Position numbers and translations under genes: made by a program
IMG/VR virus record: IMGVR_UViG_3300025164_000674
Coordinates: 1 to 26,558 of that record
Source: a virus
Lineage: Duplodnaviria > Caudoviricetes
Length of the DNA: 26,558 nt
Strand: one strand, 5' to 3'
In this document: in pieces, positions 143 through 26,286 of the stretch
Layout: each line of letters begins with the position of its first letter
How positions within the stretch are numbered: the stretch's first letter is position 1
The notes under the pieces: model-generated
Told to the model about the DNA's origin: nothing
Database searches by the model: none
What the model saw: only the letters and a program-made list of their open reading frames with translations

Positions 143-198
143 CCCCGTCACGTCGCCCCCGGTGCCCCGTCACGTCGCCCCCGGTGCCCCGTCTCGCC
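143..198. repeat. 22-bp tandem repeat (CCCCGTCACGTCGCCCCCGGTG), about 2.5 copies
   Basis: Read directly. It contains ACGTCGCC, the reverse complement of the GGCGACGT core of the adjacent array. Confidence 0.85.
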
Positions 199-480
199 GG
201 CGACGTACGCCGACTGCGTGGCGACGTACGCCGACTGCGTGGCGACGTATGTCGACTGCGTGGCGACGTACGCCGACTGCGTGGCGACGTATGTCGACTG
301 CGTGGCGACGTATGTCGACTGCGTGGCGACGTACGTCGACTGCGTGGCGACGTATGTCGACTGCGTGGCGACGTACGCCGACTGCGTGGCGACGTACGCC
401 GACTGCGTGGCGACGTACGCCGACTGCGTGGCGACGTACGCCGACTTGACCGGCGACGTATGCCGACTTGACCGGCGACG
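199..480. repeat. 21-bp tandem array GGCGACGTAYGYCGACTGCGT: 11 copies, then two 22-bp variants and a partial copy
   Basis: Units counted by hand: 199-429 in 21-nt steps, 430-473 ending TTGACC, partial copy 474-480. No unique spacers. Confidence 0.95.
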
Positions 481-510
481 AGGTACCAGGAGACTACGGC
501 GCTACACTGT

Positions 511-573
511 CACATCGCCACGTCGCCACGTCGCCACATCGCCACATCGCCACATCGCCACATCGCCACGTCG
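511..573. repeat. 8-bp tandem repeat CACRTCGC, about 8 copies
   Basis: Read directly; inverted relative to the GTGGCGACGT core of the 21-mer array. Confidence 0.9.
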
Positions 574-578
574 ACTCG

Positions 579-587
579 TGGTATAAT
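579..587 (+). promoter_or_regulatory. Extended -10 promoter (TGG-TATAAT), likely giving a leaderless terS mRNA
   Basis: Perfect TATAAT at 582-587 preceded by TGn; GTG start 6 nt downstream with no Shine-Dalgarno. Confidence 0.7.
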
Positions 588-2782: not shown

Positions 2783-3009
2783 GCGGCGTGCTGGTTATAG
2801 CGTTCGTCGTCGGGTTCGTACTCGGGCGGGGCCAGCCGGCGTCGGGACGGGCCCACGATGCGGTCTCCCGGGTAGCCGTTACGGCCCAACGGTTGGCGAC
2901 GACCCTTCGGCGGCACGGGGTAGTAGGCGACGTGGTATCGGACGTGGGGGACCTCGTCGAGGACCTGGCGGGGCTGGAAGCAGTGATCGGGGAGGAGTGG
3001 AGTGCGTAA
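2776..3009 (+). CDS. Small hypothetical protein with an N-terminal transmembrane segment (77 aa)
   Basis: GTG 2776 with GGAGGGAGG RBS; hydrophobic VLVIAFVVGFVLG; fills the terL-portal gap and overlaps both neighbours. Confidence 0.65.
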   Translation: MVGGVLVIAFVVGFVLGRGQPASGRAHDAVSRVAVTAQRLATTLRRHGVVGDVVSDVGDLVEDLAGLEAVIGEEWSA

Positions 3010-5920
3010 GCAATTATCGCCTGATCAGGTTACCCGGCTGGCAGCAGCCGCTGCCGAGGAAGGGTTCGTCGGGGCACGCTGGGCGGTCGAGTCCAACGTT
3101 CCGAAGTCGGTGGTGTACCGGGAGCTTCAGCGCATCCGGGGGGCCGACGCGTTCCAGGCCCCGCCGGCGACCGGGTACGCCACGCCGGGTCGGGACCAGA
3201 GGGTACCCGAGTTGAAACGGGGGGACGCGTTCAAGGAGTTCGGTTCGACCGGTCTCGCCCGGTTCGGGGGGTCGGTGTTCGAGGACTACGACCGCAAGTG
3301 GCGATCCTTGACTGAGATGGTCAAGCTCGTCAAGGAGATGCTCGACCACCCGATCGTCGCCGCCGTAATGTTCGCCGTCGAGATGAGCATGCGGGGCGTC
3401 GAGTGGACGGTGGAGGCCGGCGGCGAGACTCCCGCCGACGAGGAGGCGGCCGAGTTCCTCCGGCAATGCATGGAGGACATGGCTCACTCGTGGGACGACC
3501 ACGTGTCGCAGGCGCTGGCGTTCGTGCCGTACGGGTTCGCACCGTTCGAGATCGTTTACAAACGGCGGAAGGGCGGGGACACCGACCCAGCTTCCAAGTA
3601 TGACGACGGGCGGGTTGGGTGGCGGAAGTTCGCCTTCCGGGCGCAGGACACGCTGACCCCTGGCGACGAGTGGGTGTTCGACGAGCACGGTGGGGTCGCC
3701 GCGTTGAACCAGTCACCGCCGCCCGACTACAGGCGGGTCACTGTCCCGGTGGAGAAGTTAATACTGTACCGCAGCACTGCCGCCAAGAACAACCCGCAGG
3801 GGCGCAGTGTCCTGCGGGCCGCGTACGTCCCGTGGTATTACTCCAAGAACATGCAGGAGATCGAGGGGATCTCGGCCGAGCGCATGGGGTCCGGGTTCCC
3901 GGTCGTGTACCTCGGAGAGGGGACAAAGAAGGTCGGGGCCAACAGTGACTTCGAGTCGGCCAAGGTCGTCGTCCGTGACGTCCGGTCGGACGAGCAGTCG
4001 GGCATCGTGTTCCCGTACCAGAAGCAGGGCGCCGACGGGAAGGGGATCCTCTTCGAACTCGTTTCCCCGCCGAGTCGGGGCGCCGTTGACTTCAACCAGA
4101 TTATTAACCGGTATAACCAACAAATAGGTCAAGTCGTTCTCAGCCAGTTCATCTTCCTCGGCCTCACGGAGCAGGGCACGCAGGCGTTGGCCGTGCGGTT
4201 AACTGACTTGTTCTCAGCCGCTGTGTCGGCGTGGCTCGGGATGATGGCGGAGACGCTGAACCGGTTCGTCGTGCCCCGCCTCTTCCGTCTCAACGCGTTC
4301 GACGGTCTCACGGACTACCCCCGCTTCGTCACCGGCCAGGCCGGCCAGGTCGACGTCGGGTCCGTCGTGAGCGCTATGGCCCAGGCGGCCGGGTCCTCCC
4401 TCCTCGTCCCTGACACCGGAGTCGAGGCCGAGGTCCGCCGCCTCCTCCAGCTCCCGGAGAAGCCAGTGCAGGTCCAACAGCCGACCATACCGGGTGAACC
4501 AACCACGCCTGTTCCCGCAGCGCCGCCCGACGTCGAGGCCACAACCGGGGACAGTACAGCGGATAACGGCGGGGACAACGGTGGGGGCAAGGAAACGGCA
4601 TCCGAACGGTTTTACTCCGAGGACCAGGCCCGCGACGAGGGAGGGAAGTGGACCGAGGGAGGCGGGGGTAGCGGCGAAGGCGGCAATGACCGCGTAAACG
4701 AGACGCCGATAGACACCGGGAACAGTAAGGATCCTAAATGGTACAAGTCGCAACGAACCGGAATCGAAGAAACCTTGAAGACTACGTACAGCACCGTCGA
4801 GGCAAAGGATCAAGCCGGCAGTAGTTGGATTACTCAAGACGGCTCAATCGTGAACGTTGGGACCGGGACTCACGTTCTTTCCGCACTGGAAGCGGCTAAT
4901 AGGGCGAACGTCAAATTAGACCTAACTTCTAAAGAAGGCGTCGAGTCGCAATTCGTTGCGAACGGGGTAGTTCGTGTGAACGCAACGAGTACGTATTTGG
5001 CGCTGAATTTTAACCCTAAGGTAACCAGTACTGCCCAAAGACAGTCAATGATTGACTTAGTATACTTGGCTGAGCTCGCAGGGCGGTCTATTACAGTCCA
5101 TGCAAACGACACAGCACTGTACGGGACGGCCGTAGAATCGGCGCTCAAACTCTTGAAGAAAACAAACTACAACGTTGACAACGCGACCGAAGTCGAAATC
5201 ATGCGGGCGCGGATCGGCGATTATATTGACCTCTTCTACTCCGAGGACCAAACCCGCGACGAGTCAGGAAAGTGGACAAGCGGCGGCGGTGGAGGCGGTA
5301 AAGCCGGCGACGACGGTGCAGCATCCGATCGACGCGCAAACCCAAAGTTGGCTGGGGTGTACGGGCCCGACCCCAAGACGTGGAAACCTTACAAGGACGA
5401 GCTCAAGCGGATTTACCCCGATGCTAAGGTCGGTCGTACCAGCTTCGACGAGCGGGAGTTGCTGGGGGAGTACGTCGGCGGAGAAGCCTATACTATCCTC
5501 AACGGGAACGCTCGGGCAGCGGAGGCCGATTACGACCTGAGTGACGACGTTCGCATGATGGATGGGATCTTTGGTAAACTCGGGGTGTCTACCGAGGACG
5601 TCGTAGTGTACAGGGGACTCAAGGGGACCCCGGGCGGAGACTTGAAGATCGGGGCCGTGATCGCCGACAAGGGATTCATGTCGACTACGTTCAATCCGGG
5701 TGTAGCCGCTGCTTGGACCGAGACTTCGAACCAGGGTTGGATAATGGAGATAGTAGTCCCAGCGGGGAACCCGGGTATCCCCATCGACCGGTGGCTCAGT
5801 AGCGCCGAGGAGATGGAGACAACCGAGGCGGAGTTACTCTTACCGCGGAACACACCGTTGGAAGTCCAAAGCGTCGACGTAGAAACGCGCACCCTTCGGG
5901 TCCAAGTGGTGGGCCCATGA
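3002..5920 (+). CDS. Portal protein (DUF935/Mu gp29-like) fused to an unknown cargo domain and a C-terminal ADP-ribosyltransferase
   Basis: Position after terL; portal motifs PYGFAPFEIVY, NPQGRSVLRAAY, ERMGSGFPV, LNRFVVPRLFRLN. C-terminus has the VIP2/C3-like R-S-E signature: VYRG (R 5612), GFMSTT (S 5681), EAELLLPR (5825-5833). Confidence 0.9.
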   Translation: MRKQLSPDQVTRLAAAAAEEGFVGARWAVESNVPKSVVYRELQRIRGADAFQAPPATGYATPGRDQRVPELKRGDAFKEFGSTGLARFGGSVFEDYDRKWRSLTEMVKLVKEMLDHPIVAAVMFAVEMSMRGVEWTVEAGGETPADEEAAEFLRQCMEDMAHSWDDHVSQALAFVPYGFAPFEIVYKRRKGGDTDPASKYDDGRVGWRKFAFRAQDTLTPGDEWVFDEHGGVAALNQSPPPDYRRVTVPVEKLILYRSTAAKNNPQGRSVLRAAYVPWYYSKNMQEIEGISAERMGSGFPVVYLGEGTKKVGANSDFESAKVVVRDVRSDEQSGIVFPYQKQGADGKGILFELVSPPSRGAVDFNQIINRYNQQIGQVVLSQFIFLGLTEQGTQALAVRLTDLFSAAVSAWLGMMAETLNRFVVPRLFRLNAFDGLTDYPRFVTGQAGQVDVGSVVSAMAQAAGSSLLVPDTGVEAEVRRLLQLPEKPVQVQQPTIPGEPTTPVPAAPPDVEATTGDSTADNGGDNGGGKETASERFYSEDQARDEGGKWTEGGGGSGEGGNDRVNETPIDTGNSKDPKWYKSQRTGIEETLKTTYSTVEAKDQAGSSWITQDGSIVNVGTGTHVLSALEAANRANVKLDLTSKEGVESQFVANGVVRVNATSTYLALNFNPKVTSTAQRQSMIDLVYLAELAGRSITVHANDTALYGTAVESALKLLKKTNYNVDNATEVEIMRARIGDYIDLFYSEDQTRDESGKWTSGGGGGGKAGDDGAASDRRANPKLAGVYGPDPKTWKPYKDELKRIYPDAKVGRTSFDERELLGEYVGGEAYTILNGNARAAEADYDLSDDVRMMDGIFGKLGVSTEDVVVYRGLKGTPGGDLKIGAVIADKGFMSTTFNPGVAAAWTETSNQGWIMEIVVPAGNPGIPIDRWLSSAEEMETTEAELLLPRNTPLEVQSVDVETRTLRVQVVGP
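4610..4669 (+). repeat. Dispersed coding repeat, copy 1 (FYSEDQARDEGGKWTEGGGG)
   Basis: Matches copies at 5234, 6811 and 7947 at DNA and protein level. Confidence 0.95.
5228..5299 (+). repeat. Dispersed coding repeat, copy 2 (DLFYSEDQTRDESGKWTSGGGGGG)
   Basis: Direct alignment with the other copies. Confidence 0.95.
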
Positions 5921-7833
5921 ACTTACGACAGGTAGCGAAGTTTGAGGAGTACACCCCCCGAGCCGTAAAGACGGTACGGCCAAGTCGGTTCCTGAACCCG
6001 CGGCAAGTCGGGGAGTTCGAGCACTTGACCCTCAGGACCAAGGAACCCGTCGCGTTGTTCGCCGCTACCCGCGGCACGGGCGCCGAGAAACTCCGCCGGT
6101 GGGAGCGGGCGACGAACGAGTACCAGCTAGCCCTCGGCACGGCCTACGACGAGTGGGCGACCGACACGGCCGACGCGCTCGACGAGGCCGAGACCGATGC
6201 CGAGCGGGACGAGATCCTCGATGAGGCCCTCCTGGCCCTGGCCCTCCTCCTGAAGAACCTCCAACGGGAGGCGGTCTACGGTGCCGTCTCCCTCGGGACC
6301 GGCGGTCGACCGCCGACACCAGCCCTCTTGCAGCGGGTCGCGGGGCATCTTGCCGGGGCGGAGGACGCAATCGAATCGTCCCTCGTCTCCGACATCCGCT
6401 TCCGAGTCAGGGCGGCCCTTCGTGACCCCGACGTGCTGGCTAGCGGCGCGATCGCGTTCCTCGGCGTTCTCATGGCAAAGCGAGCCCGCGTCGAGTCGTA
6501 CGCCGGAGTCGCCTGGTCGACGACTCAAGTAGCCGTCGGGGAGACGGCCGCCGATGCAGCCGAGCAGGGGGGCGACGGGCGGGTTGGGTGGCAGCGCGAC
6601 GAGCAGGCAAAGCACTGTGACACGTGCCTGGCGTTCGGCGAGGACGCACCCGGCGTGCGGGAGTACGAGTCGTGGGACGCCCTCCTCGCCGAGACAGGCG
6701 GGGTCGTTCCCGGGCATGGGACGACGTGTGATGGGAACTGTCGGTGCTCCATCCTCGTCCACAACGCCAAGACGGACGAGTGGGAACGACCCGGCGACGG
6801 CGTCGACCTGTTCTACAGCGAGGACCAAGCCCGCGACGAGTCGGGGAGGTGGACCGACGGTGGAGGCGGCAGTAGCGCCGAGAATAAGGGCGAGGGTAAG
6901 GGGGGTCGGGGTGGAACAGGCCCGGGTGGGGGTGCGGGTATCGCGACCCCCTTCGTCGTAGGACAGACACCGCTACCCCCGGGTCACGACGCGGTGAGGG
7001 CAGCCTTTGACCGCGGCGTAGAAGTCGCGTACTCTGCGGCGATCAGGAACGGGGTGATCCCGGCTACCGCCGGCTTGGAGGCCGTAGCGGCGGTTGGGGC
7101 AAAGTACCTCGTTACAGAACAACTGGCCGCCACTATGGGTGTGTCGCCCGAGGTCGCCTCAAACTTAGTCCGCCAATGGGCAGAATCCTCCAACGGCAAC
7201 GACTATAGGTCGTTGTGGATGCAGGCAGTAGCCGCGGACGAATTCGGGGTACCGTTGTCCGACTGGCAACGGGAAAGACTGAGCAACGTGGAGGCCGAAC
7301 GAGCGGAGCACAAGATTGCGGACAGGGTTACCGTAGACATGCCGATTGCATTGATCGGGGTTAACCCAGTTAGACTTATGACTCCTATCGAAAAAGAGCG
7401 GTACGCGACAATCCGGAACCTCGGTCCTACTGCCCCGGATCCGTTCGGAGGTCAAAAACAGGAAGAGGTTGCCGGGGCGTTCTTGCGGGCGCAGTACGAC
7501 GCAACGCAAGAGTACTTCAAGGCCGCCGGGGTCACCGAGGTCGTCCTGTACCGGGGGCAAAGGTTCCCCGAAGGGACCAGCCTATCGGTAGGCGATGTAA
7601 TACCTGGAAACCAGAACGCACTGAACTCCTGGTCCTCCTCCGAGAAAGTTGCAGCGACTTTTACTTCGATTGCACCGGCTGAATCCGGTGTGTTGGCCGC
7701 GGTCGTTCCTGTTGACCGTATTCTTTCGACTCCGTTTACCGGGTACGGTTGCCTGAAAGAAGAGGAGTACGTGGTACTCGGGAATAGCGACGATAAAGTC
7801 GCAGTTCATAACCTACCAGTGGGGCTGCCATGA
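5917..7833 (+). CDS. MuF/SPP1 gp7-like head morphogenesis protein with a C-terminal ADP-ribosyltransferase-like domain
   Basis: Follows the portal with an ATGA overlap; MuF-type Cys motifs HCDTC and CDGNCRC; C-terminal LYRG (R 7552), NSWSS (7627), KEEEYVV (7759-7767). Confidence 0.85.
   Translation: MNLRQVAKFEEYTPRAVKTVRPSRFLNPRQVGEFEHLTLRTKEPVALFAATRGTGAEKLRRWERATNEYQLALGTAYDEWATDTADALDEAETDAERDEILDEALLALALLLKNLQREAVYGAVSLGTGGRPPTPALLQRVAGHLAGAEDAIESSLVSDIRFRVRAALRDPDVLASGAIAFLGVLMAKRARVESYAGVAWSTTQVAVGETAADAAEQGGDGRVGWQRDEQAKHCDTCLAFGEDAPGVREYESWDALLAETGGVVPGHGTTCDGNCRCSILVHNAKTDEWERPGDGVDLFYSEDQARDESGRWTDGGGGSSAENKGEGKGGRGGTGPGGGAGIATPFVVGQTPLPPGHDAVRAAFDRGVEVAYSAAIRNGVIPATAGLEAVAAVGAKYLVTEQLAATMGVSPEVASNLVRQWAESSNGNDYRSLWMQAVAADEFGVPLSDWQRERLSNVEAERAEHKIADRVTVDMPIALIGVNPVRLMTPIEKERYATIRNLGPTAPDPFGGQKQEEVAGAFLRAQYDATQEYFKAAGVTEVVLYRGQRFPEGTSLSVGDVIPGNQNALNSWSSSEKVAATFTSIAPAESGVLAAVVPVDRILSTPFTGYGCLKEEEYVVLGNSDDKVAVHNLPVGLP
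6805..6870 (+). repeat. Dispersed coding repeat, copy 3 (DLFYSEDQARDESGRWTDGGGG)
   Basis: 6819-6869 matches 7955-8005 at 50 of 51 nt. Confidence 0.95.
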
Positions 7834-8198
7834 TAGACTTAGAAGATTTAAACTCCGACTGGATTAAGCTCGTCCCCGGTGCCAAGGACGCCGATCTTGC
7901 GGCCCACGCTGCATTACGCCGGCGGTACGGCAGGGCCTCAGACTTGTTCTATTCCGAGGACCAAGCCCGCGACGAGTCGGGGAAGTGGACCGACGGTGGA
8001 GGCGGGCGCAAGGACCCCGGTACCGCCGACAAGTTGCCGAAGGCCCAGGACAAGCGGACTGGGGGTCCCGACCCAACGCCACCCCTCCCGCAGCGGAAGG
8101 ACCAGACCCCCAACCCCGGGAAGGTCCCTAGGTCGCGGGCGGTGACGACGGACGACAAGAACAAGGATAAGAAGCGGGGTGGGGGCGGAAGACCCTAA
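7830..8198 (+). CDS. Small protein: 37-aa N-terminal peptide, tag copy 4, then a basic low-complexity tail
   Basis: ATGA overlap with the MuF-ART stop; contains DLFYSEDQARDESGKWTDGGGG in frame. Confidence 0.75.
   Translation: MIDLEDLNSDWIKLVPGAKDADLAAHAALRRRYGRASDLFYSEDQARDESGKWTDGGGGRKDPGTADKLPKAQDKRTGGPDPTPPLPQRKDQTPNPGKVPRSRAVTTDDKNKDKKRGGGGRP
7941..8006 (+). repeat. Dispersed coding repeat, copy 4 (DLFYSEDQARDESGKWTDGGGG)
   Basis: Direct alignment with copy 3. Confidence 0.95.
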
Positions 8199-8291: not shown

Positions 8292-8328
8292 GGAACGCGA
8301 GCCACGCGAGGTGGTTCGTTTTTATTCC
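8292..8328 (+). terminator. Terminator/attenuator-like hairpin in the 5' leader
   Basis: GCGAGCCAC-gcgag-GTGGTTCGT followed by TTTT, between the promoter and the AGGAGG RBS. Confidence 0.55.
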
Positions 8329-8340
8329 AGGAGGGAACGA

Positions 8341-9669
8341 GTGCAGAGAACCTCTCCGGAGTCGGCCGTCTTCGAGTCGCTTAGCACCGACTTCACCAAG
8401 TCATTCAAGTTAATCCCGTCCGGGCAGTGGTACCGGGGGGACCGAGTCCTCGACATCACCGAGGCGCGCCTGAACGAGGTCGCCCGGAACTTCGCCGCCG
8501 GCCTACCGCGGTACCGCGTGCCGATTAACTTGGACCACGAGGACACGAGCGGAAAGGTCGGCACTGTGAAGGCAGTCGCCGTTCGGTTGGACGACGACGG
8601 CAAGCCGGCCCTGTACGTCACCGAGTTCGAGTTGACGAACAAGGGGCGGAAGGCCGTAGACGAATCCGGGTACGACTCGCTTAGCGCCGAGGTATACTGG
8701 TCGCTGAACGGTGCGACCTACCAGGACCCGAAGACGGGCGTCGAGTTCGACAACGTGCTGGTCGGCGTTGCCCTCACGCCCCGGCCGTTCTTCGGGCACG
8801 GGGAGGTCGCGCTTTACAGTGCTGACCGATACTACTCTGAAGATCAGGAACGCGACGACGATAAAGAAGAGTACTTTGGTGAGTACTCTCCCGAGTACCG
8901 AAAGCAATTAGCCGAGGAGGGACGGGCCCTCCCGGACGGGAGTTACCCAATCGAGACGAAGGCTGACCTGGCGAACGCAGTCCAGGCGTACGGGCGGGCC
9001 GGGGCGAAGGCGCCGGTGAAACGACACATCCTCAAGCGCGCCAAGGAATTAGACGCGGAGGACTTGATCCCGGCCGAGTGGTCTGGGAAGGAGGAGGCAG
9101 GAATGACAGGCAAGACACCGGAACAGTTGGCAGTCGAGCAGTCGGCGGCCGAGAAAGCGGCGGCCGAGAAAGCGGCAGCCGAGCAGTTGGCGGCCGAGAA
9201 AGCGGCAGCCGAGCAGTTGGCGGCCGAGAAGTCGTTCGTAGAAAAGACGTTAACCGAGCAGTTGACGGCCGAGCGAGCCCGCACCGCGGTACTCGAGATC
9301 AGGGTAGAACAGATGGCCGCGGGAATCCGTACGTCCGAGCTCAAGCGAGTGGCCGAGGCGTTCGTTGCCCTCCCGGTCAACCCGGACGAGTTCGCCACCA
9401 AGTTCCAGGCCCTGGAGAGGGTGGACAAGACGCTGGCGGAGTGGTTCACCGGGCAGTTTGCGGCGTTCGACAAGGTGCTGACCGAGGCCGGCCTGCTGAA
9501 CGAGCTCGGTAATGGACGGAACGGGGACCAAACCCCGGCCGAGCAGTTCATCGGGCTCGTCAACGCGACCCTGAAAGAGAAGTTCGCTGGGAACCCGGCC
9601 AAGTACAGCGAGGCACTGGCCGTGACGAGCAAGGCCCACCCTGATCTCGCAAAGGCCTACACCCTGTAG
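8341..9669 (+). CDS. Prohead protease-scaffold fusion (Mu I/gp32-like)
   Basis: PINLDHE, YDSLSAE and [11 protein letters not shown] protease motifs; coiled-coil scaffold with AAEK/EQL repeats. Start placed at GTG 8341 after AGGAGGGA. Confidence 0.85.
8824..8865 (+). repeat. Degenerate tag, copy 5 ([13 protein letters not shown])
   Basis: YSEDQxRD is conserved but with different codons; lies at the end of the protease domain. Confidence 0.8.
9142..9231 (+). repeat. 15/30-bp coding tandem repeat ([10 protein letters not shown]) in the scaffold region
   Basis: GCGGCCGAGAAAGCGGCAGCCGAGCAGTTG is repeated. Confidence 0.85.
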
Positions 9670-9684
9670 GCGGAGGAGGAGACA

Positions 9685-10107
9685 ATGGCTTCGTATTTCG
9701 ATGGCGGGTTCGACGGTAGTTTCGTCGCTGATACTGACTTGACGACCCACCAGTTCAAGCTCGCGAAGGCGGCCAGCATCGTCGGGAACGCCGGCCTCGC
9801 AGACAGTGGGTCGAACCCGTACCCGATCGGCGTGCTGCAGAACGACCCGAGCGCTGGGCAGGAAGCCCGGATCCGGATGATAGGGTTCACGAAGGCGATC
9901 GCCCGCGTGACGACCTGCGTCCTCGACCACGGTGCTTGGCTGAAGGGTGCCAGCGACGGCCTGTTCGAGCCGTTGACGTCGATCACCGGGACCGAAACAG
10001 CGATCGGCCGGTGGTTTGGGCCGGGTAACACCACGGTGGACGCGTCGATCATGGGTAACGTCCTCGTGTTCATCACAAACGCCTCGGCCGGCCAGTCGGC
10101 CAGCTAG
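9685..10107 (+). CDS. Capsid cement/decoration protein (DUF2190-like)
   Basis: Between scaffold and major capsid; IGVLQNDPSAGQEARIRMIG pattern; GGAGGAGG RBS. Confidence 0.7.
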   Translation: MASYFDGGFDGSFVADTDLTTHQFKLAKAASIVGNAGLADSGSNPYPIGVLQNDPSAGQEARIRMIGFTKAIARVTTCVLDHGAWLKGASDGLFEPLTSITGTETAIGRWFGPGNTTVDASIMGNVLVFITNASAGQSAS

Positions 10108-11488: not shown

Positions 11489-11782
11489 GTGTCACAATTG
11501 TTGCCGAGACCATCCTCCGGGAGTATCCTGACGGGGGCTGCATCGGTCCCCGGGGGTACAGCCGGAACCCCAGCGTGGTTCTACATCGTCGCCGGGGCGG
11601 CTACCGGGGGCGGAAGTGCCCTACTGTACAACGACACTGCCTGTACCGCGGGGCGGGAGGTCGTGCTCCTGCGGGCCACTGCGAACGAGCAGGGTCCCCA
11701 GGTGGGTCCGTTCTTCGCCACCTGCACCCTGTACCTGGGTCCGGTCAGTTCCGGCAGCGTAGTGGTCTGGACGGGGCCCTAA
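11489..11782 (+). CDS. Hypothetical virion protein
   Basis: Tightly packed in the operon; composition like neighbouring structural genes. Confidence 0.65.
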   Translation: MSQLLPRPSSGSILTGAASVPGGTAGTPAWFYIVAGAATGGGSALLYNDTACTAGREVVLLRATANEQGPQVGPFFATCTLYLGPVSSGSVVVWTGP

Positions 11783-11865
11783 TCGTTCGGTAGGGCGGTG
11801 ACAATCCCTAGGCCGGCCCCGGCACTGACGTCGGCGCCGGCCCATCTTGTTATCGGGAGTCCAGC

Positions 11866-12180
11866 ATGCCGATACCCATCGTACCCGAAGCAGATATCTT
11901 GGAGGTCATCCGGAGAATGGGGCCGACCCTCCCGGTCGACGCGGTGCCCCAGGTCACCCTGACCGCCGTCGTGTCGCTCACGAGGGAGTTCCGCGACCTC
12001 CGGGTGGCCGTCGAGGGGCACGTTGCGGACCAGAACCTGCACTCGCCCCGCGGGCTCCTCCTGCGGCGGGACGTCATCTTGCCGATGGTGACGACCATAC
12101 TGGTGGGTGCGACCGTGGTTTACGCGTTCTACAACTCCATCGACCTGAAGTCAATCCTCGCTATTCTGGCCCTGAAGTAA
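11866..12180 (+). CDS. Hypothetical membrane protein with a C-terminal transmembrane segment (possibly holin-like)
   Basis: GGGAG RBS; hydrophobic VILPMVTTILVGATVVYAFY. Confidence 0.6.
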   Translation: MPIPIVPEADILEVIRRMGPTLPVDAVPQVTLTAVVSLTREFRDLRVAVEGHVADQNLHSPRGLLLRRDVILPMVTTILVGATVVYAFYNSIDLKSILAILALK

Positions 12181-12201
12181 AGAGTTTTACTAGGAGGACT
12201 C

Positions 12202-12711
12202 ATGGCCTACAGTACCTGCGCGACGGTCGCCGCACTAATCCCGAACCTGCTGAACAACGCGGCGTCGTTCGACAACCTCCCGACAACGGTCGTGCCGGGG
12301 TCGACCGCACTCGTCCGGTTCATGTCCGCCGGGTGCTCCCTCATCGAGACCCGCCTCGTCTCCCTCGGGTACGGGGTACCAGTCGCGGCCGGGAACCGCC
12401 TGTACGACCTCCTGGCCGACGCCGAGGCGTCCTACGCGGCCTACCGTGCGGAGCAATCCCGCGGGTCCCCGCGCACCGGGCCAGGCACGCGCTCGCGCGC
12501 GGAGGGGTTCAAACAGCACTTCGAGGACACGCTGGAGTCCCTGACTACGATGGACTTGACTCAGGCGGGGGCGGCCCTCGGGTACGCCGGGGCAGGATGG
12601 TACGTGGGTGGCACCTCCCAGGCAGAGAAGAACCTGGTAGAGTCCGACGGTAACCGGGTTGACCCACGGTTCTTTCGAGATCAATTCGCAAACATAAAAG
12701 CGGCTTCTTAG
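12202..12711 (+). CDS. Head-tail adaptor (Mu gp36/HK97 gp6-like)
   Basis: MAYSTCATVAAL start and IETRLVSLGYGVPV pattern; AGGAGG RBS; position after capsid genes. Confidence 0.65.
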   Translation: MAYSTCATVAALIPNLLNNAASFDNLPTTVVPGSTALVRFMSAGCSLIETRLVSLGYGVPVAAGNRLYDLLADAEASYAAYRAEQSRGSPRTGPGTRSRAEGFKQHFEDTLESLTTMDLTQAGAALGYAGAGWYVGGTSQAEKNLVESDGNRVDPRFFRDQFANIKAAS

Positions 12712-12724: not shown

Positions 12725-13399
12725 GTGAGTGATACGGCGACTATTTACGCCCTTGTGAACCCGAGGGACGCGCGGGTTCGGTACGTCGGGAAGGCAAACG
12801 ACCCCGAGAAGCGGGCCGCATCGCATGTGGGCCGGGCGGCTAAGACCCTCAAGTTCAACCTTGGGATGGGCGCTTGGCTGCAGGGTTTGAGGGCGGCCGG
12901 GTTGACCCCCGGGGTTTTGGTCCTGGAGGAGGTTCCGAGGGACTCGTGGGAGGCGGCGGAGGTCCGGTGGATCAAGGACCTCAAGGAGTCTGGGTTCGAC
13001 CTACTGAACCTTCACTCCGGGGGGGCAGGCAGTACTCGTGCGTGGAATAAAAACAGGCGTCTATCCTTGAGTCATTGTGCTAATATCGGCCGGGCGAATA
13101 AAGGTAAGGTTCTAACGGCAGAACATCGAGCAAAGATTGCCGCCGGTCATTTAAGGATAGTACCGTGGAACAAGGGTATCCCTACTCCTGAGAGTACTAG
13201 GCAGAAGATTAGCGAGGCAAACAGATTAGCGTTTAGCCAAGTTAGTACACGGCTTCTCTTATCCAAGAGGACTAAGGAGTACTGGGCGAACCTCAGCAAC
13301 GAGGAACGGGCAGCTCGTAAGAAACTAACGCGTGACGGGATAGCCCGCCGTCAATTCGAGCGCAAGAAAGAGGGTGGTCAGCATGGCAGTTCCGCGTAA
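12725..13399 (+). CDS. Free-standing GIY-YIG homing endonuclease with NUMOD3-like repeats
   Basis: IYALV...RYVGK...R...H, later E and N (EAAEVRWI, LLN); KGKVLTAEHRAKIA and NKGIPTPESTRQKISEA repeats; AT-richer 3' half. Confidence 0.85.
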   Translation: MSDTATIYALVNPRDARVRYVGKANDPEKRAASHVGRAAKTLKFNLGMGAWLQGLRAAGLTPGVLVLEEVPRDSWEAAEVRWIKDLKESGFDLLNLHSGGAGSTRAWNKNRRLSLSHCANIGRANKGKVLTAEHRAKIAAGHLRIVPWNKGIPTPESTRQKISEANRLAFSQVSTRLLLSKRTKEYWANLSNEERAARKKLTRDGIARRQFERKKEGGQHGSSA

Positions 13400-14919
13400 A
13401 CCGACGCCCAAGACTGGGATCAACGTCGTGTACCTCTACGCGGACTCCTGACGGGGTCCGCTGAGGAGTGGAACTGTTCGTGTAAGAACCGCACTGGCGT
13501 TGTCACCTAGTCAGTAATGCGGTGAACTGGGCCAACGAGCGGGACCCGGTGGGTTCACCCCACCAGGCCCGGTTGTACTACCTTCGGACGGCCCTTGACC
13601 TCGACAACCCAGTCGTGCAGTCGAAGCTCGGGTGGGCAGACGTGCTGGTGTTCCAGCGGAACATCGTCACGCCTGACGTGTGGGCTGCGATGGATTACTG
13701 GCGGGCCCTCGGTAAGGTCGTCCTCGTCGACCTTGACGACCACTACCCCCACATCCCGGCGTCAAACCCCGCGCACCCGTACTGGGCGCAGAACGTGCTA
13801 GGTTTGGACCCGGAGCCCGTCGCCGCGCTGGAGGAGGGACTCCGACACGCGGACGCCCTTCTCGCGCCGAACCGGCTGATCCTCCGGGACTGGGCGCACG
13901 TCGTCGACGGGTACTATTGGCCGAATTACCTCCCCGGCCCCGACTACTGGGACCTCGACAAGTTCCGCAGGCCCCCCAGTGCACTGGACGTCGAGTACTT
14001 GTCCCGGCCGGCCCCGGAGGGATCGACCGAGCCACTCCTCCTCGCCAAGGAGCGGGAGGGGAGCGCCGGCCAAGTCGTCATCGGCTGGGGTGGGAGTATC
14101 AGCCACGTCGACTCCTTCCGCTACAGTGGCGTCCTCCCCGCGCTGTCGCGGCTCCTCCGGGATCGGCCGAACGTCGTGTTCAAGTTCTGCGGCCACGAGG
14201 CGCGGCTCGACCCGTACTTCGCTGCGTTACCCGCAGCCCAGGTCATCCGGCAACCGGGAGTCTTCCCGGCCCATTGGCCGAAGGTCGTCGCCACGTTCGA
14301 CGTCGGGATCGCGCCGCTCGACCTCCGACCGTGCCCCGGGGGAACGGCCTCGGCCGTAGAGGGATACGCCTACGACGAGCGGCGGTCGTGGTTGAAGCTC
14401 GTCGAGTACGTCGGTGCCGGCGTACCGTTCGTGGCCTCCCGGGGTGAACCGTATCGGGACCTGGCCCGGTTCGGGGCGGTCGTCGACAATACCGAGGAGG
14501 CATGGTACGACGCCCTCCGATCGAGGGTCGACTCGATCGGTGCCTTCCGGGAGGAGGCCGCCAAGTACCGCCGGTGGGCCATGAAGCGGTTGACAGCGGA
14601 GGCAAACGTACCCGAACTGATGCGGATGCTGGACATAGTCGGCAAGACCTCCCAAGCACGTGCCGGCCGGAACCTCCCGAATACCACTTACGTCGAAGCG
14701 GGAGAACCGGTCGCCGACCAGCCGACACTGTCTTACCGTAGCGGTGACCCGCTGGAGACCGGGGTAGCGGCAACGACGAACCAAGCCCGGGAACTGGCCG
14801 CCACCCTTGCCATCGACCACACCCTGTACTACAAGGGCCTACTGTTAGGCGCTATCCTGGAGTACCCGTTGACCGAACGATTCAACATCGCACTGGTTCA
14901 GGAGCCCCCCGGTGTCTAA
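13383..14919 (+). CDS. GT-B glycosyltransferase (GT4-like). The 5' end is interrupted by two 11-nt inserts: 504 aa if recoded, otherwise the open part is 13522-14919
   Basis: ADVLVFQR, VDLDD, IGWGGSISH, FDVGIAPL and SWLKLVEY...GVPFVAS motifs. ATG 13383 has an RBS (GAGGGTGG) while GTG 13522 has none; removing 2x11 nt gives one continuous frame. Confidence 0.75.
13446..13459 (+). other. Candidate translational bypass element 1 (TCC-TGA-CGGGG-TCC)
   Basis: Matching codons 11 nt apart; stop immediately after the first; 9-bp stem 13440-13448/13453-13461 with a UGAC loop. Confidence 0.55.
13479..13491 (+). other. Candidate 11-nt insert 2 (TGTAAGAACCG)
   Basis: Removal joins WNCS to HWRC; GTTC/GAAC stem with a TAA-containing loop; CG repeated at the borders. 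Confidence 0.5.
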
Positions 14920-16120
14920 TAAGCCTACCCTCGTTACGATCGGGTCCGACGTCCAACGGTCGTTGTGGGCGCCGTTGGCCGAGACCTTCGACCTCTTGTT
15001 CGTGAACTCCCAGGCGGGGGCGGCCGCCCGGGGGCTGGGGGTCGAGTGTAGACTGGTTCAGGACGTTGTTACCGGGGAGGTCGAGGGGTCGGCCCGGGCG
15101 GCGGCCCTTCGGCTCGTATCCGAGTACGTTCACTCGTTCGAAGAACGTCGGCCCCACTTCGTCCTCGGCCACCCCCGCCTCGACGGCGACGGGTTGACCC
15201 AGTGGTACTACCCCCTCCTCCTGGACGCCGTCACCCAATTGACCGTGCAAACGGAGGCGATCCTGGCGGCGGTAGCCGGTAAAACGGTAGCCGGGATCCT
15301 CCTCCACGAGGACGTTACGCACATCGGTCGACTGCTGGCTGCTATCGGGACCGACATTCTCCGGGTCCCGGTGATCCACGTCCCTCACGCTAGTCACTTC
15401 CTGTCCCCGACAACGGCTGACCTTCACTCGCGGGTCTACAGTACCCACCTTGCCCTCCCCGGGGAGTACGCCCGGGACTGGTACGCCGCGGCCGGCGTAC
15501 CCAGCACCGTAATTCGGGTCACCGGTGCCCCGCAGTGGGACGAGTTGTACGGGGATCCGTCGCCAGTGATCCCGAGGGACGCTGCCCGCAGAACCCTGCA
15601 CTGTCCCCCGGAGGGGGAGGTACTGGGTTACGCCGGGACGTGGGCGCAGTACACAACCGTGTGGGGTAGGGGGCAGGAGGATGTATGGGATGCGGCCCGT
15701 ACCGTCTTCCGTGAGGCAAAGCGGCGGGGGGCGTACGTCGTTGTCTCCCTCCACCCCCACGAGTCCTCAGACCACGTCGCGCTGTACGCCGATCTCCTCC
15801 GTAAGAGCGGGGCCGCCGGGTGCATTACCCGCGGGACCAGAGGGTTCGTCCTCGGGGCCGTCGACGCCCTCATCGTCCACTCGTCAAACTTCGGGGTCGA
15901 AGCGCTCGCTGCCGGTGTCCCGGTCGTCGATTACTGGCTGTGCGGGGCGCAATACCCCGTCAGGGCCCGCGTGCCAGGTACTTGGGGTGACACCCTCGGT
16001 GCCCAGTTGGACGTCGTATCGGGGTCGACCCCCGGGCGGGAATTCGTTCGGTACGTGAATCACGACGACGACGGCGGAGCGACGACTCGGGTCGTGGCGG
16101 CCGTGAAAGAGTGGGTGTGA
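14912..16120 (+). CDS. GT-B fold protein (UDP-GlcNAc 2-epimerase/glycerophosphotransferase/capsule-modification-like)
   Basis: VPVIHVPHA, IRVTGAPQWDEL, SLHPHE and SSNFGVEALAAGVPVV motifs. Confidence 0.7.
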   Translation: MSNKPTLVTIGSDVQRSLWAPLAETFDLLFVNSQAGAAARGLGVECRLVQDVVTGEVEGSARAAALRLVSEYVHSFEERRPHFVLGHPRLDGDGLTQWYYPLLLDAVTQLTVQTEAILAAVAGKTVAGILLHEDVTHIGRLLAAIGTDILRVPVIHVPHASHFLSPTTADLHSRVYSTHLALPGEYARDWYAAAGVPSTVIRVTGAPQWDELYGDPSPVIPRDAARRTLHCPPEGEVLGYAGTWAQYTTVWGRGQEDVWDAARTVFREAKRRGAYVVVSLHPHESSDHVALYADLLRKSGAAGCITRGTRGFVLGAVDALIVHSSNFGVEALAAGVPVVDYWLCGAQYPVRARVPGTWGDTLGAQLDVVSGSTPGREFVRYVNHDDDGGATTRVVAAVKEWV

Positions 16121-21147: not shown

Positions 21148-23382
21148 GTGACCGTAAAACCGATAGTCTCTATCGAAATAGAGCTAAGCGGCAGTGGCGC
21201 CGGGTGGACAGACATCAGCCCCGATGTCACCGGGACCACATACGGGGAGTACGGTATCCGGTCGAACCGGTTCCTAGACCGAGTCGGGTCGACAGGCCTC
21301 CTGTCGTTCTACCTCCGGAACGACCCCGGGAACAGTGGCGGACTCCTCGGCTATTACTCCCCAAACCACGCCAACCTCCGGCCGGGATTTGCCCTTAACA
21401 TTCGGGCACGAGTAAAGTTCGCCTACAGTGGAAGCGTCTTCTACCGCAACCTGGGGAGGGTGCAGGATATCGCCCCGGAGACCGGGAAGTTCGGCCCACG
21501 GCGGACCCGCGTGATGGTGACCGACTGGTTCGAGGACGCCGCCCGTAACCGCACCCTGGCCCAGTGGCCTACGCTCGTCAATACCCCGCCGAACGAAGCG
21601 ATCGCAAAGATGGTGGGGGCCGCAAACCTCCTCCCACCGGCCTCGGCCTTGAACGCCGGCCAGGAGCGGCTAGCGTACGCCGGCGACATCGGCACGGGGG
21701 ATAAGACGACTCTCCTCGGCGAATTGACGAACCTCACGAATAGCGAGTTGGGGTACGCATACATGCGGGGAGACTCGACCGTGGGCGGGACACTCGTGTT
21801 CGAGGACCGGCACTCCCGGATCCGGGCTGCCTCGTCCTCGGCCTCCCTGAACGATACGATGACCTCGTTCGAGGTTATCCGGCCCCAATCGCGAGTCGCT
21901 AACCGGGTCGGGGTCACCGTCCACCCCCGCGACGTCGATGCCGCCGGAACGTGCCCAGTCGTCTTCTCCCTGACGTACGTCCCGACAATCCCCGCCGGAG
22001 CGAGTCTAACGGTCCTCGGGGAGTACACCGACCCAGCGGCGGCTGACCGGAAAGTGGGGGCCGCTAGCGTCCTCGTTCCGGTTGCGCCGGACGACTACCA
22101 GGTTAGCTACTCCCCGACCGGGTCGGCCGACAAGTTGACGTTCGACCAGAAGGGGCGGGTCCTGGCGACCTGCCCGACGCACCTCCTCGGGTACTGGACG
22201 CTGGGAAATACTCGAGGCGCGTGTGTATTCAGCGAGACTGACCCGCTTCGGGTAGCGTCTGGTAGTTATACTGGGGTCACTGTTGGGGCTACCGGGATAG
22301 GCGACGGCCGAACAGCAACGTGCGCACTGCTCTCAGTTGGGGGCGTCAACCATGTAGATTTACTCACGTCAGCAACGTGTAAGTGGGCCTCCAGCCCGAT
22401 GGACGGGACTGTATCTTTATGGTTAAAAGGAGACTCCGCGTCGGCTTGGACGACAGCCAGTAATTTGTGGATGTTTGCCCTCCGGACTGAGGATGGTAAC
22501 CAGACAATTCAATTCCGGAAGCCAAGCGTCGAGATCGCTGAGATCCGCTCTAGTGTGAATCATCTAACAAGTGTCACGCTACAGACGTTCCCAACCGCAA
22601 ACACTGATTGGTATCACTTTGCGTTGGCTTGGAGTTCTGTAACGCGTGCAGCTAGCGCGTACTTGAACGGGGTGTTCAACACTGGTACACCGGCATCAAC
22701 CCTCGGTACCTCCTGGACAGCGTCTTCCCCATCCCTCCGGCTGTATGCAATACCAAATTTCAATAACTTCCCAGGTACATACGCACACTGTGCCATTTGG
22801 GACGTGGCGCTCGCCGCTAGCCACATCCTGGGTATCTACCTATCCTCGTCCGGTGGGGTCAACCTGGACGCCGACATCGGTGGCCGGGCGATCCGGTACT
22901 CGATCGTGAACCAGAACCCAGTGCCGGTGTACGTCACCACCCTCCAAGCCCGGGGCCGGGCGGTGCGGGACTTCCAACCTACGACGCACGTCGCCGGCGA
23001 CCCGCAAGGAGTCGTGAGCGAGACAAACCTAGACATGCCCTACAAGCAGTCGGCTCTGGACGGCCAGGCGGCGGCGGGCTTTGTCCTATCCGTCCTCGGG
23101 ACACCCGTCACGGACGTGGAGTCGGTCCGGTTCCTGGCTAACGAGTCGGACGCCCTGATGCGAACGTTCCTGAACGGGGAGCCGGGGAGCCGAATTCGCC
23201 TCCAGGAGACGGTCTCCGGGATCGACGCCGACTACTACGTCAACGGGGTTGAGTACCAGGTCAGAGAAGACTACAGCATCGAGTGCACGTGGCTCGTCGT
23301 CCCTGCCCTGAACGTGGCGTACTGGGCGTTGGGGACTGCCGGGTACTCCGAAGTCGGGTCGACAACGACGGTGACGTACTGA
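21148..23382 (+). CDS. Tail tip/hub protein with an internal LamG (concanavalin A-like) domain
   Basis: WTDISPDV start, GTLVFEDRHSR; internal GTVSLWLK, DWYHFALAW, AYLNG and AIWDVAL LamG motifs. Confidence 0.75.
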   Translation: MTVKPIVSIEIELSGSGAGWTDISPDVTGTTYGEYGIRSNRFLDRVGSTGLLSFYLRNDPGNSGGLLGYYSPNHANLRPGFALNIRARVKFAYSGSVFYRNLGRVQDIAPETGKFGPRRTRVMVTDWFEDAARNRTLAQWPTLVNTPPNEAIAKMVGAANLLPPASALNAGQERLAYAGDIGTGDKTTLLGELTNLTNSELGYAYMRGDSTVGGTLVFEDRHSRIRAASSSASLNDTMTSFEVIRPQSRVANRVGVTVHPRDVDAAGTCPVVFSLTYVPTIPAGASLTVLGEYTDPAAADRKVGAASVLVPVAPDDYQVSYSPTGSADKLTFDQKGRVLATCPTHLLGYWTLGNTRGACVFSETDPLRVASGSYTGVTVGATGIGDGRTATCALLSVGGVNHVDLLTSATCKWASSPMDGTVSLWLKGDSASAWTTASNLWMFALRTEDGNQTIQFRKPSVEIAEIRSSVNHLTSVTLQTFPTANTDWYHFALAWSSVTRAASAYLNGVFNTGTPASTLGTSWTASSPSLRLYAIPNFNNFPGTYAHCAIWDVALAASHILGIYLSSSGGVNLDADIGGRAIRYSIVNQNPVPVYVTTLQARGRAVRDFQPTTHVAGDPQGVVSETNLDMPYKQSALDGQAAAGFVLSVLGTPVTDVESVRFLANESDALMRTFLNGEPGSRIRLQETVSGIDADYYVNGVEYQVREDYSIECTWLVVPALNVAYWALGTAGYSEVGSTTTVTY

Positions 23383-24900: not shown

Positions 24901-26286
24901 TTATTCCTCCTGTGAACCCTCAACGGTCGGGGGCGGTTCCCCCGGTACGATTATACCCCCGTTCTTATCCTGCTCCTTCCCTTCCTTACGGTCTTCCACT
25001 TTGAATACCCGGCGTAACTCCTTCCCGTCGGCGGTGCTAAACTCATCCACCCCAGGTACCGGCCAATCCCGCCAGTCGTCCGCGCGCTCGGGGAACGGCA
25101 CGAATCGGAACCCAATTTCCCCTAGGTCCCCGTTGTCCCGGAACCGGAGTTGCAGGATCGTTCCCCCGACGTGGGGGGTCAATCCCAACCGTTTCGCAAG
25201 GTTCGTCTTACCTTGAAACGCCCCGCAGTGGAGTCCGTAAAAGGGCGGTTCTGGGACAAAGATAGCAATGTGGACGTGCCCAGCGGCCAGGATAGACGAA
25301 ACGACCCCGCCTTGCTCTTGTTCCAAAAGGATCTTCCCGAGAGCCTCGAACGCTTGTTGCTCCATGGCTTTCTGCATATGGTACGACTTCGCGTAGGCGA
25401 TCGACTTCTTCGGGTGCCACAGCCGGAGGTGGACTCGGTCGGTTAATGGGATGCTCCAAACGTCGTACCCTCCGTAAACCGCGTCCTCCCTGAGGTTGCA
25501 GAACATCCGGATCGGGTCCATCCCGGTGGATACGACGTGCGCCCAGTCGTGGTTCCCCCCCATAACGTAGTACTGTACCCCGGCGACGTGGGGGAGACAA
25601 TCAACCGCGATCCGTACTTGCATGGTGGTAGACTTCCACGCTGTATCCCGGGAAAACGGGCGGGTACTGGGGATAAGGTCCTCTGCCTGCCCCCGGTAAA
25701 CGTTCACCCCGGTCGTGAGGTCCCCCGGTTGGAAGAACTTGGTAACCCCGAACCGCTCGTTGGCATACTTTACGAACGAGGCTACGGCGGTTGGTTGACT
25801 GTACCGGTCCCCGTAGTGTGGGTCGGAGACAAAAGCAACATTGAACTCTTCCCCCAACTCCGAGGCCAAGTCTATTACCGGTTGTACAACCCTGGGTCGG
25901 GACGAGACGTCTACGGTAATACGGTCCCCGGCGGTTGCCACAAGGTACCCAGCAGCGTCCATCTCCCCCAGAAGGCGGGATACGGTAGCCGGGGATCGGT
26001 CGAACTTGTTACACAATGCGACAACGGAACGGGGGGTGTCCTTGAGGAACTCGAACAACTGCTGGAAAGACGGGTCGGTAACCGCAGCGAGCGGTGCGTC
26101 AAGGGAGGGAAACGCCGGGACGGTCGTACTCAGACTACCGTACTTCACACGACACGCGTCCGCCGACCGGCGCCCCAAAAAACTTGCTTGCGCGACTTGA
26201 GACCAAGTTACGTACCCAAGACGGACCCTCTCTCCCTCGTAGTTTAAAATCTGTATCTCTTTCTCGGACCAAGCGGCGTTGTTCAC
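24901..26286 (-). CDS. Calcineurin-like metallophosphoesterase with N-terminal Myb-like and winged-HTH domains
   Basis: SDPHYG, PGDL, GNHD, LWHP and AGHVH motifs; WSEKE...WSQVA...RSADACRVKY; LCNKFDRSPATVSRLL; AGGAGG RBS. Confidence 0.9.
   Translation of the reverse strand: MNNAAWSEKEIQILNYEGERVRLGYVTWSQVAQASFLGRRSADACRVKYGSLSTTVPAFPSLDAPLAAVTDPSFQQLFEFLKDTPRSVVALCNKFDRSPATVSRLLGEMDAAGYLVATAGDRITVDVSSRPRVVQPVIDLASELGEEFNVAFVSDPHYGDRYSQPTAVASFVKYANERFGVTKFFQPGDLTTGVNVYRGQAEDLIPSTRPFSRDTAWKSTTMQVRIAVDCLPHVAGVQYYVMGGNHDWAHVVSTGMDPIRMFCNLREDAVYGGYDVWSIPLTDRVHLRLWHPKKSIAYAKSYHMQKAMEQQAFEALGKILLEQEQGGVVSSILAAGHVHIAIFVPEPPFYGLHCGAFQGKTNLAKRLGLTPHVGGTILQLRFRDNGDLGEIGFRFVPFPERADDWRDWPVPGVDEFSTADGKELRRVFKVEDRKEGKEQDKNGGIIVPGEPPPTVEGSQEE

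Follow-up and report, generated by a model that had tools for sequence, protein, structure and literature searches.

Short in-frame stop inserts split a phage glycosyltransferase gene family and point to a new form of translational bypassing

Results

A glycosyltransferase gene split over three frames

The window, i.e. the entire stretch of 26,558 nucleotides analysed here, is a 26.6-kb virus record carrying a tailed-phage morphogenesis operon with genes for terminase, portal, major head protein, major tail protein and tape measure. A GIY-YIG gene, a split glycosyltransferase gene, a second GT-B-like gene and a methyltransferase gene are placed between the probable adaptor gene and the tail genes. 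The features referred to below are as follows.

12202-12711: probable head-tail adaptor gene, so labelled from its position (no family match)
12725..13399, + strand: free-standing GIY-YIG homing endonuclease gene overlapping the glycosyltransferase start (PF01541, E 5e-5; phrog_314 homing endonuclease, E 5e-10)
13365..13379, + strand: extended Shine-Dalgarno (SD) sequence of the glycosyltransferase start (duplex -17.9 kcal/mol, the strongest of 19 window starts scored)
13383..13448, + strand: coding piece 1, 22 codons, take-off codon TCC at 13446-13448, predicted strand β1
13440..13461, + strand: 9-bp RNA hairpin, with its 5' arm in coding piece 1, loop UGAC, and its 3' arm in the insert and landing codon
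13449..13459, + strand: insert 1, 11 nt, TGA-C right behind the take-off codon, landing codon TCC at 13457-13459
13460..13480, + strand: coding piece 2, 7 codons, EWNCS motif, own start codon absent, take-off codon TCG at its end
13481..13491, + strand: insert 2, 11 nt, sense codon TGT behind the take-off codon, near-matched landing codon CCG at 13489-13491
13492..14919, + strand: coding piece 3, remainder of the glycosyltransferase (GT-B, GT4-like), with an open frame up to its stop (14917-14919)
14912..16120, + strand: second GT-B-like gene, intact in the window

The coordinates and frames given in the first-pass annotation are exact: the frame opened by ATG 13383 runs for 22 codons up to TGA 13449, seven codons follow at 13460-13480, the third frame continues from 13492, and omitting 13449-13459 and 13481-13491 yields a single stop-free frame of 504 aa. 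Insert 1 likewise has the design described there (TCC|TGA...TCC), with the stop after the take-off codon and an identical landing codon within a 9-bp hairpin, and the TAA of insert 2 is indeed not in the incoming frame, belonging instead to the outgoing one. Insert 2 has TGT and no stop as its A-site codon and matches take-off to landing codon at 2/3 bases, versus the exact match of insert 1. TGT is not clearly a starved codon in the window (12 TGT versus 22 TGC in 4595 codons), and another TGT sits two codons ahead of that of insert 2. The contiguous motif in related proteins named by the annotation was also borne out: the spacing of the joined frame (xxD-3aa-EWN-2aa-WR) is found in 69 of 120 homologous proteins and is kept in 69/71 scored intact homologs, the homolog P0013 runs uninterrupted through the motif (YLYADSAEEWNCSEWRC), and each of the residues E, W, N, C and S of EWNCS is at least 90% conserved among 75 aligned homologs.

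Assembly error was rejected at the contig level, since a separately assembled 61-kb contig (L001), which equals the window at 21393/21395 bases, includes both inserts. The cluster of the downstream protein has 6 members on 22 contig records (JGI, ENA, Logan), with 5' DNA from L001 alone.

Fold and setting of the enzyme

PF13692 is present in 45/82 homologs of the glycosyltransferase, and the AlphaFold2 model of the intact homolog P0013 (54% identical; mean pLDDT 93.8) resembles the GT4-type enzymes PimB', MshA, PimA and BshA (Foldseek, E 1e-13 to 1e-11). The ESM Atlas supports the GT-B/GT4-like assignment with 0.98, and a PDB sequence search returned no relative of the glycosyltransferase. The modelled enzyme has the two Rossmann-like domains and other features of a GT4-like glycosyltransferase with GT-B fold, in which residues 8-13 form β1, residues 14-21 a loop and residues 22-40 helix 1. 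Because pieces 1 and 2 encode β1 and the start of helix 1, a product of the annotated alternative start GTG 13522 would be without them, and by the P0013 model this start would delete β1 and most of helix 1. The SD score of GTG 13522 is -1.6, i.e. it has no ribosome-binding site. The place of the gene between head and tail genes suggests the virion as the enzyme's target; capsid glycosylation is mentioned for mycobacteriophages in the literature.

Cellular homologs reside mostly in Anaerolineae and other Chloroflexota, a mere hint at the host. The host search found a homolog in 3/401 genomes of the class to which genome G003 belongs, all three distant. Cultured phages match the glycosyltransferase at 21-26% only; a viral scan with the single protein as query gave no match, and a repeat of the viral scan with a second alignment gave the same 33 contigs. 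As for the neighbours, close relatives of the GIY-YIG gene lie upstream in the insert-bearing loci L002 and L081 and in the insert-free locus L044. The window's own copy of the second GT-B-like gene has no Pfam or PHROG match; its homolog in L081 matches PF04464 (Glyphos_transf), and that in L043 carries a 6-nt insert (CAT|TAG CAT).

Inserts are a recurrent trait of the phage family

We fetched 141 loci and aligned their DNA to a motif profile with DNA insertions allowed, and then to the whole protein. Dropped before counting were 24 loci whose names and translations marked them as duplicate contigs, loci ending before the motif, the false calls L071/L111 and L137, L017 (motif absent) and L064 (single TAG substitution), as well as, as artefacts, the 49-nt calls made for L076/L090 and the long ones made for L053/L100. 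Of the remaining 62 non-redundant phage-like loci, 58 show the motif in full; the other four are the window, L081, L058 and L046. Inserts occur in 25 of the 62 (one insert in 15 loci, two in 9 and three in 1) and in 0/22 chromosomal homologs. The resulting 37 distinct inserts span 4-18 nt, with 19 of them being 4-6 nt long; 36 occupy 11 codon boundaries in the glycosyltransferase gene, of which ten lie within ~16 codons of the N-terminal motif and one, used in L040 and L046, inside a DLDD motif ~80 codons later, and the 37th is that in the neighbouring gene of L043. Taking the inserts out always restores the motif spacing of the family. Since inserts at the same site may share ancestry, 37 may overstate the number of independent events.

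The site of insert 1 is also used in L056 (9 nt), L059 (15 nt), L090 (18 nt) and L021 (5 nt). At the site of insert 2, L056 and L059 likewise have TCG|TGT and land exactly on TCG, L032 has TCT|AGT, and L043 and L048 have TCT|TGA. The inserts do not constitute a single conserved cassette, and the equal length of the two inserts in the window, which had been offered as an argument against random decay, is a coincidence given the range of lengths in the relatives.

When 13 further families, among them capsid, portal, tail and tape measure genes, were scanned in a frameshift-aware manner over ~49,700 aligned codons, no stop-first insert came up; what the scan did return were long indels that had been split, artefacts at alignment ends and, in L081, a single 1-nt indel. 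Nor was a stop-first insert seen in the families of the adaptor, the methyltransferase and the endonuclease. The scan is local, missed 5 known 5' glycosyltransferase loci and may overlook inserts near gene starts.

Stops, landing codons and hairpins

An in-frame stop stands directly behind the last conserved codon in 31/37 inserts, and at least once at each of the 11 boundaries used. Random inserts with the same placement freedom give a mean of 1.3 such cases and a maximum of 6 in 2000 draws, and random tandem duplications give 5.7% per insert. The 6 inserts without a stop include insert 2 of the window. Among the insert stops 24 are TGA, and the next base is C in 18 of these 24, versus 36/182 natural TGA stops of the same contigs; a C following UGA is described as disfavouring termination in prfB (PMC5009743). 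Since in-frame stops are read only by the ribosome, the signal carried by the inserts is translational.

Take-off codon and final insert codon are identical in 13 cases, agree at two bases in 17 and at one base in 7, so that a match of two to three bases is observed in 30/37 inserts versus a null mean of 7.2 (maximum 15). Part of this agreement may be due to an origin of the inserts by slippage duplication, and plain re-pairing accounts badly for the seven one-base matches (e.g. TGG to TAC, TAT to GAC). By frame, 17 inserts are +1, 9 are +2 and 11 are in-frame; stop readthrough may be an alternative for these 11.

The hairpin at insert 1 (-17.8 kcal/mol) beats 99.5% of random inserts sharing its first and last codon, and the surrounding 76-nt region has a folding z of -2.1. 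The hairpin that had been proposed for insert 2 (4 bp) is not above chance, with 69% of random inserts folding equally well. Among the inserts of at least 9 nt, a hairpin stands out in 5/15, insert 1 included, and is absent in 10/15, insert 2 included. All four second inserts with a sense codon after EWNCS (window, L056, L059, L032), which may be of common ancestry, are located 16-17 nt behind a strong hairpin of the first insert. The GAGGAG upstream of insert 2, suggested as a signal, does not generalise across the family. An internal SD as general stimulator was rejected, since SD-like strength 5' of the take-off codon is inconsistent (median -4.95 versus -3.7 in insert-free genes).

Insert-bearing genes have strong ribosome-binding sites

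SD strength was scored against a generic anti-SD 15-mer. A score of -10 kcal/mol or stronger is reached by 18/21 insert genes versus 9/36 insert-free genes (Fisher p 1e-5, uncorrected for kinship), with medians of -19.4 and -7.1, respectively. The exceptions are L081 (true value -15.8 after a mis-parse), L040 (cut at the contig end) and L067 (real). The contrast holds in 7/8 sister comparisons chosen from the tree, the pair L039/L047 being strong on both sides. The first take-off codon lies 11-35 codons behind the start.

Selection and history

In 12 pairs with at least one insert-bearing member, pN in the motif is 0-0.25 versus a pS of 0.42-1.39, and in the rest of the gene 0.006-0.24 versus 0.21-0.87. 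For the window, computed separately, pN of piece 1 is 0.0 in 5/6 pairs over the last 7 motif codons, the short and thus noisier piece 2 has pN > pS in 1/6 pairs, and the rest of the gene has a pN of 0.30-0.34 versus a saturated pS. These substitution patterns indicate that the coding pieces are under purifying selection, and the relaxed dN/dS in the downstream part that had been named as the sign of a pseudogene was looked for and is not seen, pN being well below pS instead.

A FastTree of the unbroken downstream part (67 proteins) implies 11 changes of the insert label, and well-supported branches force at least 10 gains or losses. Clean differences between sisters are found for L039 versus L047 and L023 versus L020 (single 4- and 6-nt gaps), and the sisters L090 and L076 have inserts at different sites. 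L032 and the insert-free L033 are divergent on the 5' side and near-identical on the 3' side, the inserts marking the changeover (motif pS 0.62 versus 0.21 for the rest). Recombination of the 5' module is likely (L032 versus L033), and the number of independent origins is therefore uncertain.

Discussion

Our finding that conserved coding pieces with a colinear predicted product are separated by non-coding blocks, taken together with the stops, landing codons, tree and selection in the family, strongly supports the proposal of the first-pass annotation that the gene may be read by ribosomal bypassing. We estimate a probability of roughly 0.75 that ribosomes hop both 11-base inserts to make the full enzyme. 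The very strong ribosome-binding site would load ribosomes at ATG 13383, and after 22 codons peptidyl-tRNA-Ser would reside on UCC with a slowly released UGA-C in the A site; a slow A-site codon follows the take-off codon at insert 1 and in 31/37 family inserts, insert 2 having TGT. Some of the ribosomes would then slide forward by 11 nt to pair again with the following UCC. After seven further codons, a second hop would lead from UCG to CCG, here in the absence of a stop and possibly pushed by the hairpin of site 1 refolding 16 nt behind the P site. Pairing of mRNA exiting the ribosome is proposed as the drive for forward movement in a preprint on gene 60 (10.1101/2024.12.09.627546), and by analogy this model would fit second inserts placed behind the hairpins of first inserts. 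Ribosomes that do not hop would release a dead-end peptide of 22 or 38 residues, and two unassisted serial hops could perhaps provide very little protein. The stretches examined yielded no trans-acting factor, and neither the window nor 14 loci yielded a phage tRNA or suppressor tRNA. That loss of bL9 might render the host prone to hopping received no support, as bL9 is present in 5/5 Chloroflexota genomes with a homolog.

Three other accounts of how the gene is read must be weighed against bypassing, and we consider recoding by +1 or -1 frameshifts and stop readthrough, which would add a few residues to a tolerant loop, to be improbable. The 4-nt TGAC inserts and the sites CTT|TGA C of L011 and L040 do reproduce the shift site of prfB, a site in use in candidate hosts (it is present, with its UGA-C, in 4/4 Chloroflexota prfB loci examined); residues 14-21 are a loop in the P0013 model, 4-nt inserts fit a +1 frameshift adding one residue, and in-frame 6-nt inserts fit readthrough. 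A single shift, however, cannot cross the 11 nt of insert 1, because it would begin with the stop in the A site and would have to reach the +2 frame; moreover, the fixed motif spacing of the intact homologs speaks against added residues, and many breaks fall inside β1 or helix 1. Still less credible is that the gene is switched off or decaying, or yields a functional shorter product begun further downstream, with the inserts as knock-outs of a dispensable gene. Dispensable accessory genes may disappear, a single TAG stands inside the gene in L064, and many database homologs are called with foreign or downstream starts; but the downstream frames continue unbroken as far as the usual stop or the end of the contig, with the apparent break in L040 being a third stop-first insert and that in L090 an alignment artefact. 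Furthermore, pN is far below pS in the broken 5' motif and in the rest, random lesions would not be stop-first 84% of the time, the strongest SD of the window belongs to piece 1, and truncation would delete β1.

Removal at the RNA level, either as micro-introns, which the annotation had raised as the alternative, or by cleavage at a stalled stop codon and re-ligation, appears the least credible of the three. It would account for a precise excision despite the 7/37 poor landing codons, hairpins exist at some sites, and a larger intron-like element of ~206 nt is present in the same motif of L081. That element, inside the Trp codon, we take to be a putative group I intron from its core motifs; it has no Rfam match. 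Yet 19/37 inserts have a mere 4-6 nt and their signal is tied to the reading frame, so that the micro-intron alternative is left without support: a shared terminal sequence is absent apart from the in-frame stop, neither window insert shows bulge-helix-bulge geometry on inspection by hand, there is no Rfam match in the window or 9 loci, and no ligase or endoribonuclease family match was obtained among 69 neighbouring proteins scanned.

If ribosomes do bypass the inserts, it is of interest what purpose this serves. An expression gate, which lowers the output of the enzyme or ties it to release-factor-2 activity, is a tentative answer to which we assign just under an even chance, and we favour it narrowly over immunity against a homing endonuclease because of the strong loading, the weak stops, their arrangement of one to three in series, and the confinement to glycosyltransferase genes among those scanned. 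Immunity, in which the inserts are selected to break the DNA target of the nuclease while hopping repairs the damage and the strong SD compensates, is possible at somewhat longer odds. In its favour, the GIY-YIG gene of the window overlaps the glycosyltransferase start, GIY-YIG, HNH and LAGLIDADG genes lie directly upstream in relatives, L081 holds its intron-like element inside the motif, the 5' divergence of L032 and L033 switches at the inserts, and the gene 60 insert has been reported to block nicking by MobA (bioRxiv 2022.08.31.505936). The association is weak, however, in that visible upstream DNA has a nuclease gene at 4/15 insert versus 3/32 insert-free loci (GIY-YIG alone 3/15 versus 2/32, p 0.31); three loci with a nuclease (L044, L053 and L025) are insert-free, inserts are also found ~80 codons downstream (L040, L046) and in a neighbouring gene (L043), and the UGA-C bias would suit gate and immunity alike. 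The two purposes are compatible, as immunity may be what first brings inserts in, and they may then be retained in genes whose strong SD makes up for the loss. It is then tempting to speculate, although we regard this as rather doubtful, that stacked and freely evolvable UGA-C stop-hops (4-18 nt, one to three per gene) constitute a general translational valve fed by a maximal ribosome-binding site, by which a probably virion-modifying glycosyltransferase would be made only when RF2-dependent termination is slow. Hops of 4-18 nt would then need almost no dedicated signal, and the hairpin left by the first hop would drive the second at a sense codon. If true, this would include the first natural in-frame stop-hops, and hopping would be made routine by host ribosomes or a phage factor.

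In the terminase genes of the Streptomyces phages phiHau3 and StrepC.1, two 10-nt gaps occur in one gene (Antonov et al. 2023, PMC10732093); the 10-nt hop was observed for one site of phiHau3 by mass spectrometry in E. coli, the rare sense codon UUA is the trigger, 3/100 genes are affected at two sites, and a regulatory role has been proposed. The glycosyltransferase family shares with phiHau3 the short gaps within conserved junctions in some family members only. In contrast to the UUA of phiHau3, which is found in 0/37 inserts, its triggers are mostly stops (UGA-C), in 25/62 loci and at 11 sites with 4-18 nt, and they are coupled to a strong start-site SD. In T4 gene 60, a homologous cassette of the 50-nt class at one site, with a nascent-peptide signal and a mini-SD, always comes from MobA (Manning and Atkins, bioRxiv 2022.08.31.505936). 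Insert 1 resembles it in take-off codon, A-site stop, take-off hairpin and matched landing codon, and a homing endonuclease gene adjoins the split gene in both; the glycosyltransferase family differs in that its inserts are short, numerous and unrelated to one another, with as many as three in one gene and most lacking a hairpin, and in its weak link to nucleases. Its host gene encodes a GT-B glycosyltransferase and not Topo2L, and the neighbour in the window is GIY-YIG. The notion of miniature gene 60-like elements suggested by the annotation is correct only in part, since the family has no single cassette, a hairpin that stands out in 5/15 and an exact landing in 13/37. The gaps of the glycosyltransferase genes are too short for an SD within the gap. 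The system would work like phiHau3 and, at insert 1, like gene 60, and is a member of neither type because UUA, a topoisomerase, MobA and a single cassette are all absent.

Similarities extend to other recoding systems. Stop-hops were known from synthetic constructs, and the 2016 review, in the sections available, gives no natural in-frame case (Atkins et al. 2016, PMC5009743); matched codons flank the stop in the glycosyltransferase genes as in those constructs (e.g. CTT|TGA CTT, AGG|TGA AGG). The byps of Magnusiomyces involve an unassigned codon, 12/15 mitochondrial genes and relaxed ribosomes (PMC5009743). Many glycosyltransferase inserts likewise have imperfect landing matches, but among the genes scanned they occur in just two, both of glycosyltransferase type. 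The prfB gene of E. coli, encoding RF2, has a +1 shift at CUU-U, an internal SD placed at a constant distance and UGA-C at codon 26 (PMC5009743). The early in-frame UGA followed by C (~codon 11-35) is common to both, and output would in both cases rise at low RF2, whereas jumps of 4-18 nt, varied take-off codons and the lack of a consistent internal SD set the glycosyltransferase genes apart.

The comparative evidence strongly supports that the inserts are a real feature and that they represent a new form of translational bypassing; in the open-licence PubMed Central and bioRxiv literature we found no paper on this glycosyltransferase family. Very few natural examples of bypassing are known (T4 gene 60, the terminase of phiHau3 and the byps of yeast mitochondria), and the sections of the 2016 review at hand call for regulatory examples (PMC5009743). 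The family offers 37 natural variants in one short motif, along with near-identical insert-free sisters as controls, by which hop distance, landing fidelity, stop context, initiation strength and serial hopping become testable in simple reporters. Finally, the inserts expose a blind spot of gene calling at the N-termini of this family: because they split the start of the gene, about a third of its database entries (~41/119 homologs) carry an N-terminus that gene calling has placed at a foreign or downstream start.

Inserts and possible exchange in the glycosyltransferase genes

A 6-nt stop-flanked insert (CAT/TAG CAT, L043:12344-12349) lies mid-gene in the second GT-B-like gene of a related contig, and is the sole insert found outside the main glycosyltransferase family. 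Within that family, the DNA of loci L032 and L033 changes abruptly from divergent to near-identical exactly at the second insert, and this sharp switch suggests that the 5' module was exchanged by recombination or conversion.

In locus L081, an insertion of ~206 nt (9749-9953), preceded by T and ending in G, splits the Trp codon of the conserved EWN motif. Its core words look group-I-like, and an Rfam search of the insertion returned no match. The same gene also carries a 6-nt stop-first insert, and the GIY-YIG gene upstream of it is close to that of the window.

Two other endonuclease genes lie immediately upstream of a glycosyltransferase, on the opposite strand:

L048:5984-6586 (-), HNH endonuclease
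L025:9003-9869 (-), LAGLIDADG endonuclease

Similar inverted-repeat leaders, common to L025, L032, L021 and L090, precede the glycosyltransferase and are possibly remnants of such endonuclease cassettes.

Other genes

Window 3002-5920, portal protein (portal part, PF06074) fused to a long C-terminal extension
Window 24901-26286 (-), metallophosphoesterase/exonuclease-like protein with N-terminal helix-turn-helix
L184:15133-15378, Acb2/Tad1-type hairpin domain (PF24729, E 8e-17)

An ADP-ribosyltransferase domain lies in the C-terminal part of the portal ORF (match to PF03496 at E 3.5e-12). The portal ORF and the ORFs at 5917-7833, 7830-8198 and 8311-9669 have in common a repeated peptide that starts with FYSEDQ. 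At the left end of the window (162-586), ~21-nt units form a tandem array with three open frames. The gene at 24901-26286 is oriented towards the lysis end of the operon. The Acb2/Tad1-type gene, probably an anti-defence gene, is encoded in an insert-bearing phage, near an MT-A70 methyltransferase (11592-12701).
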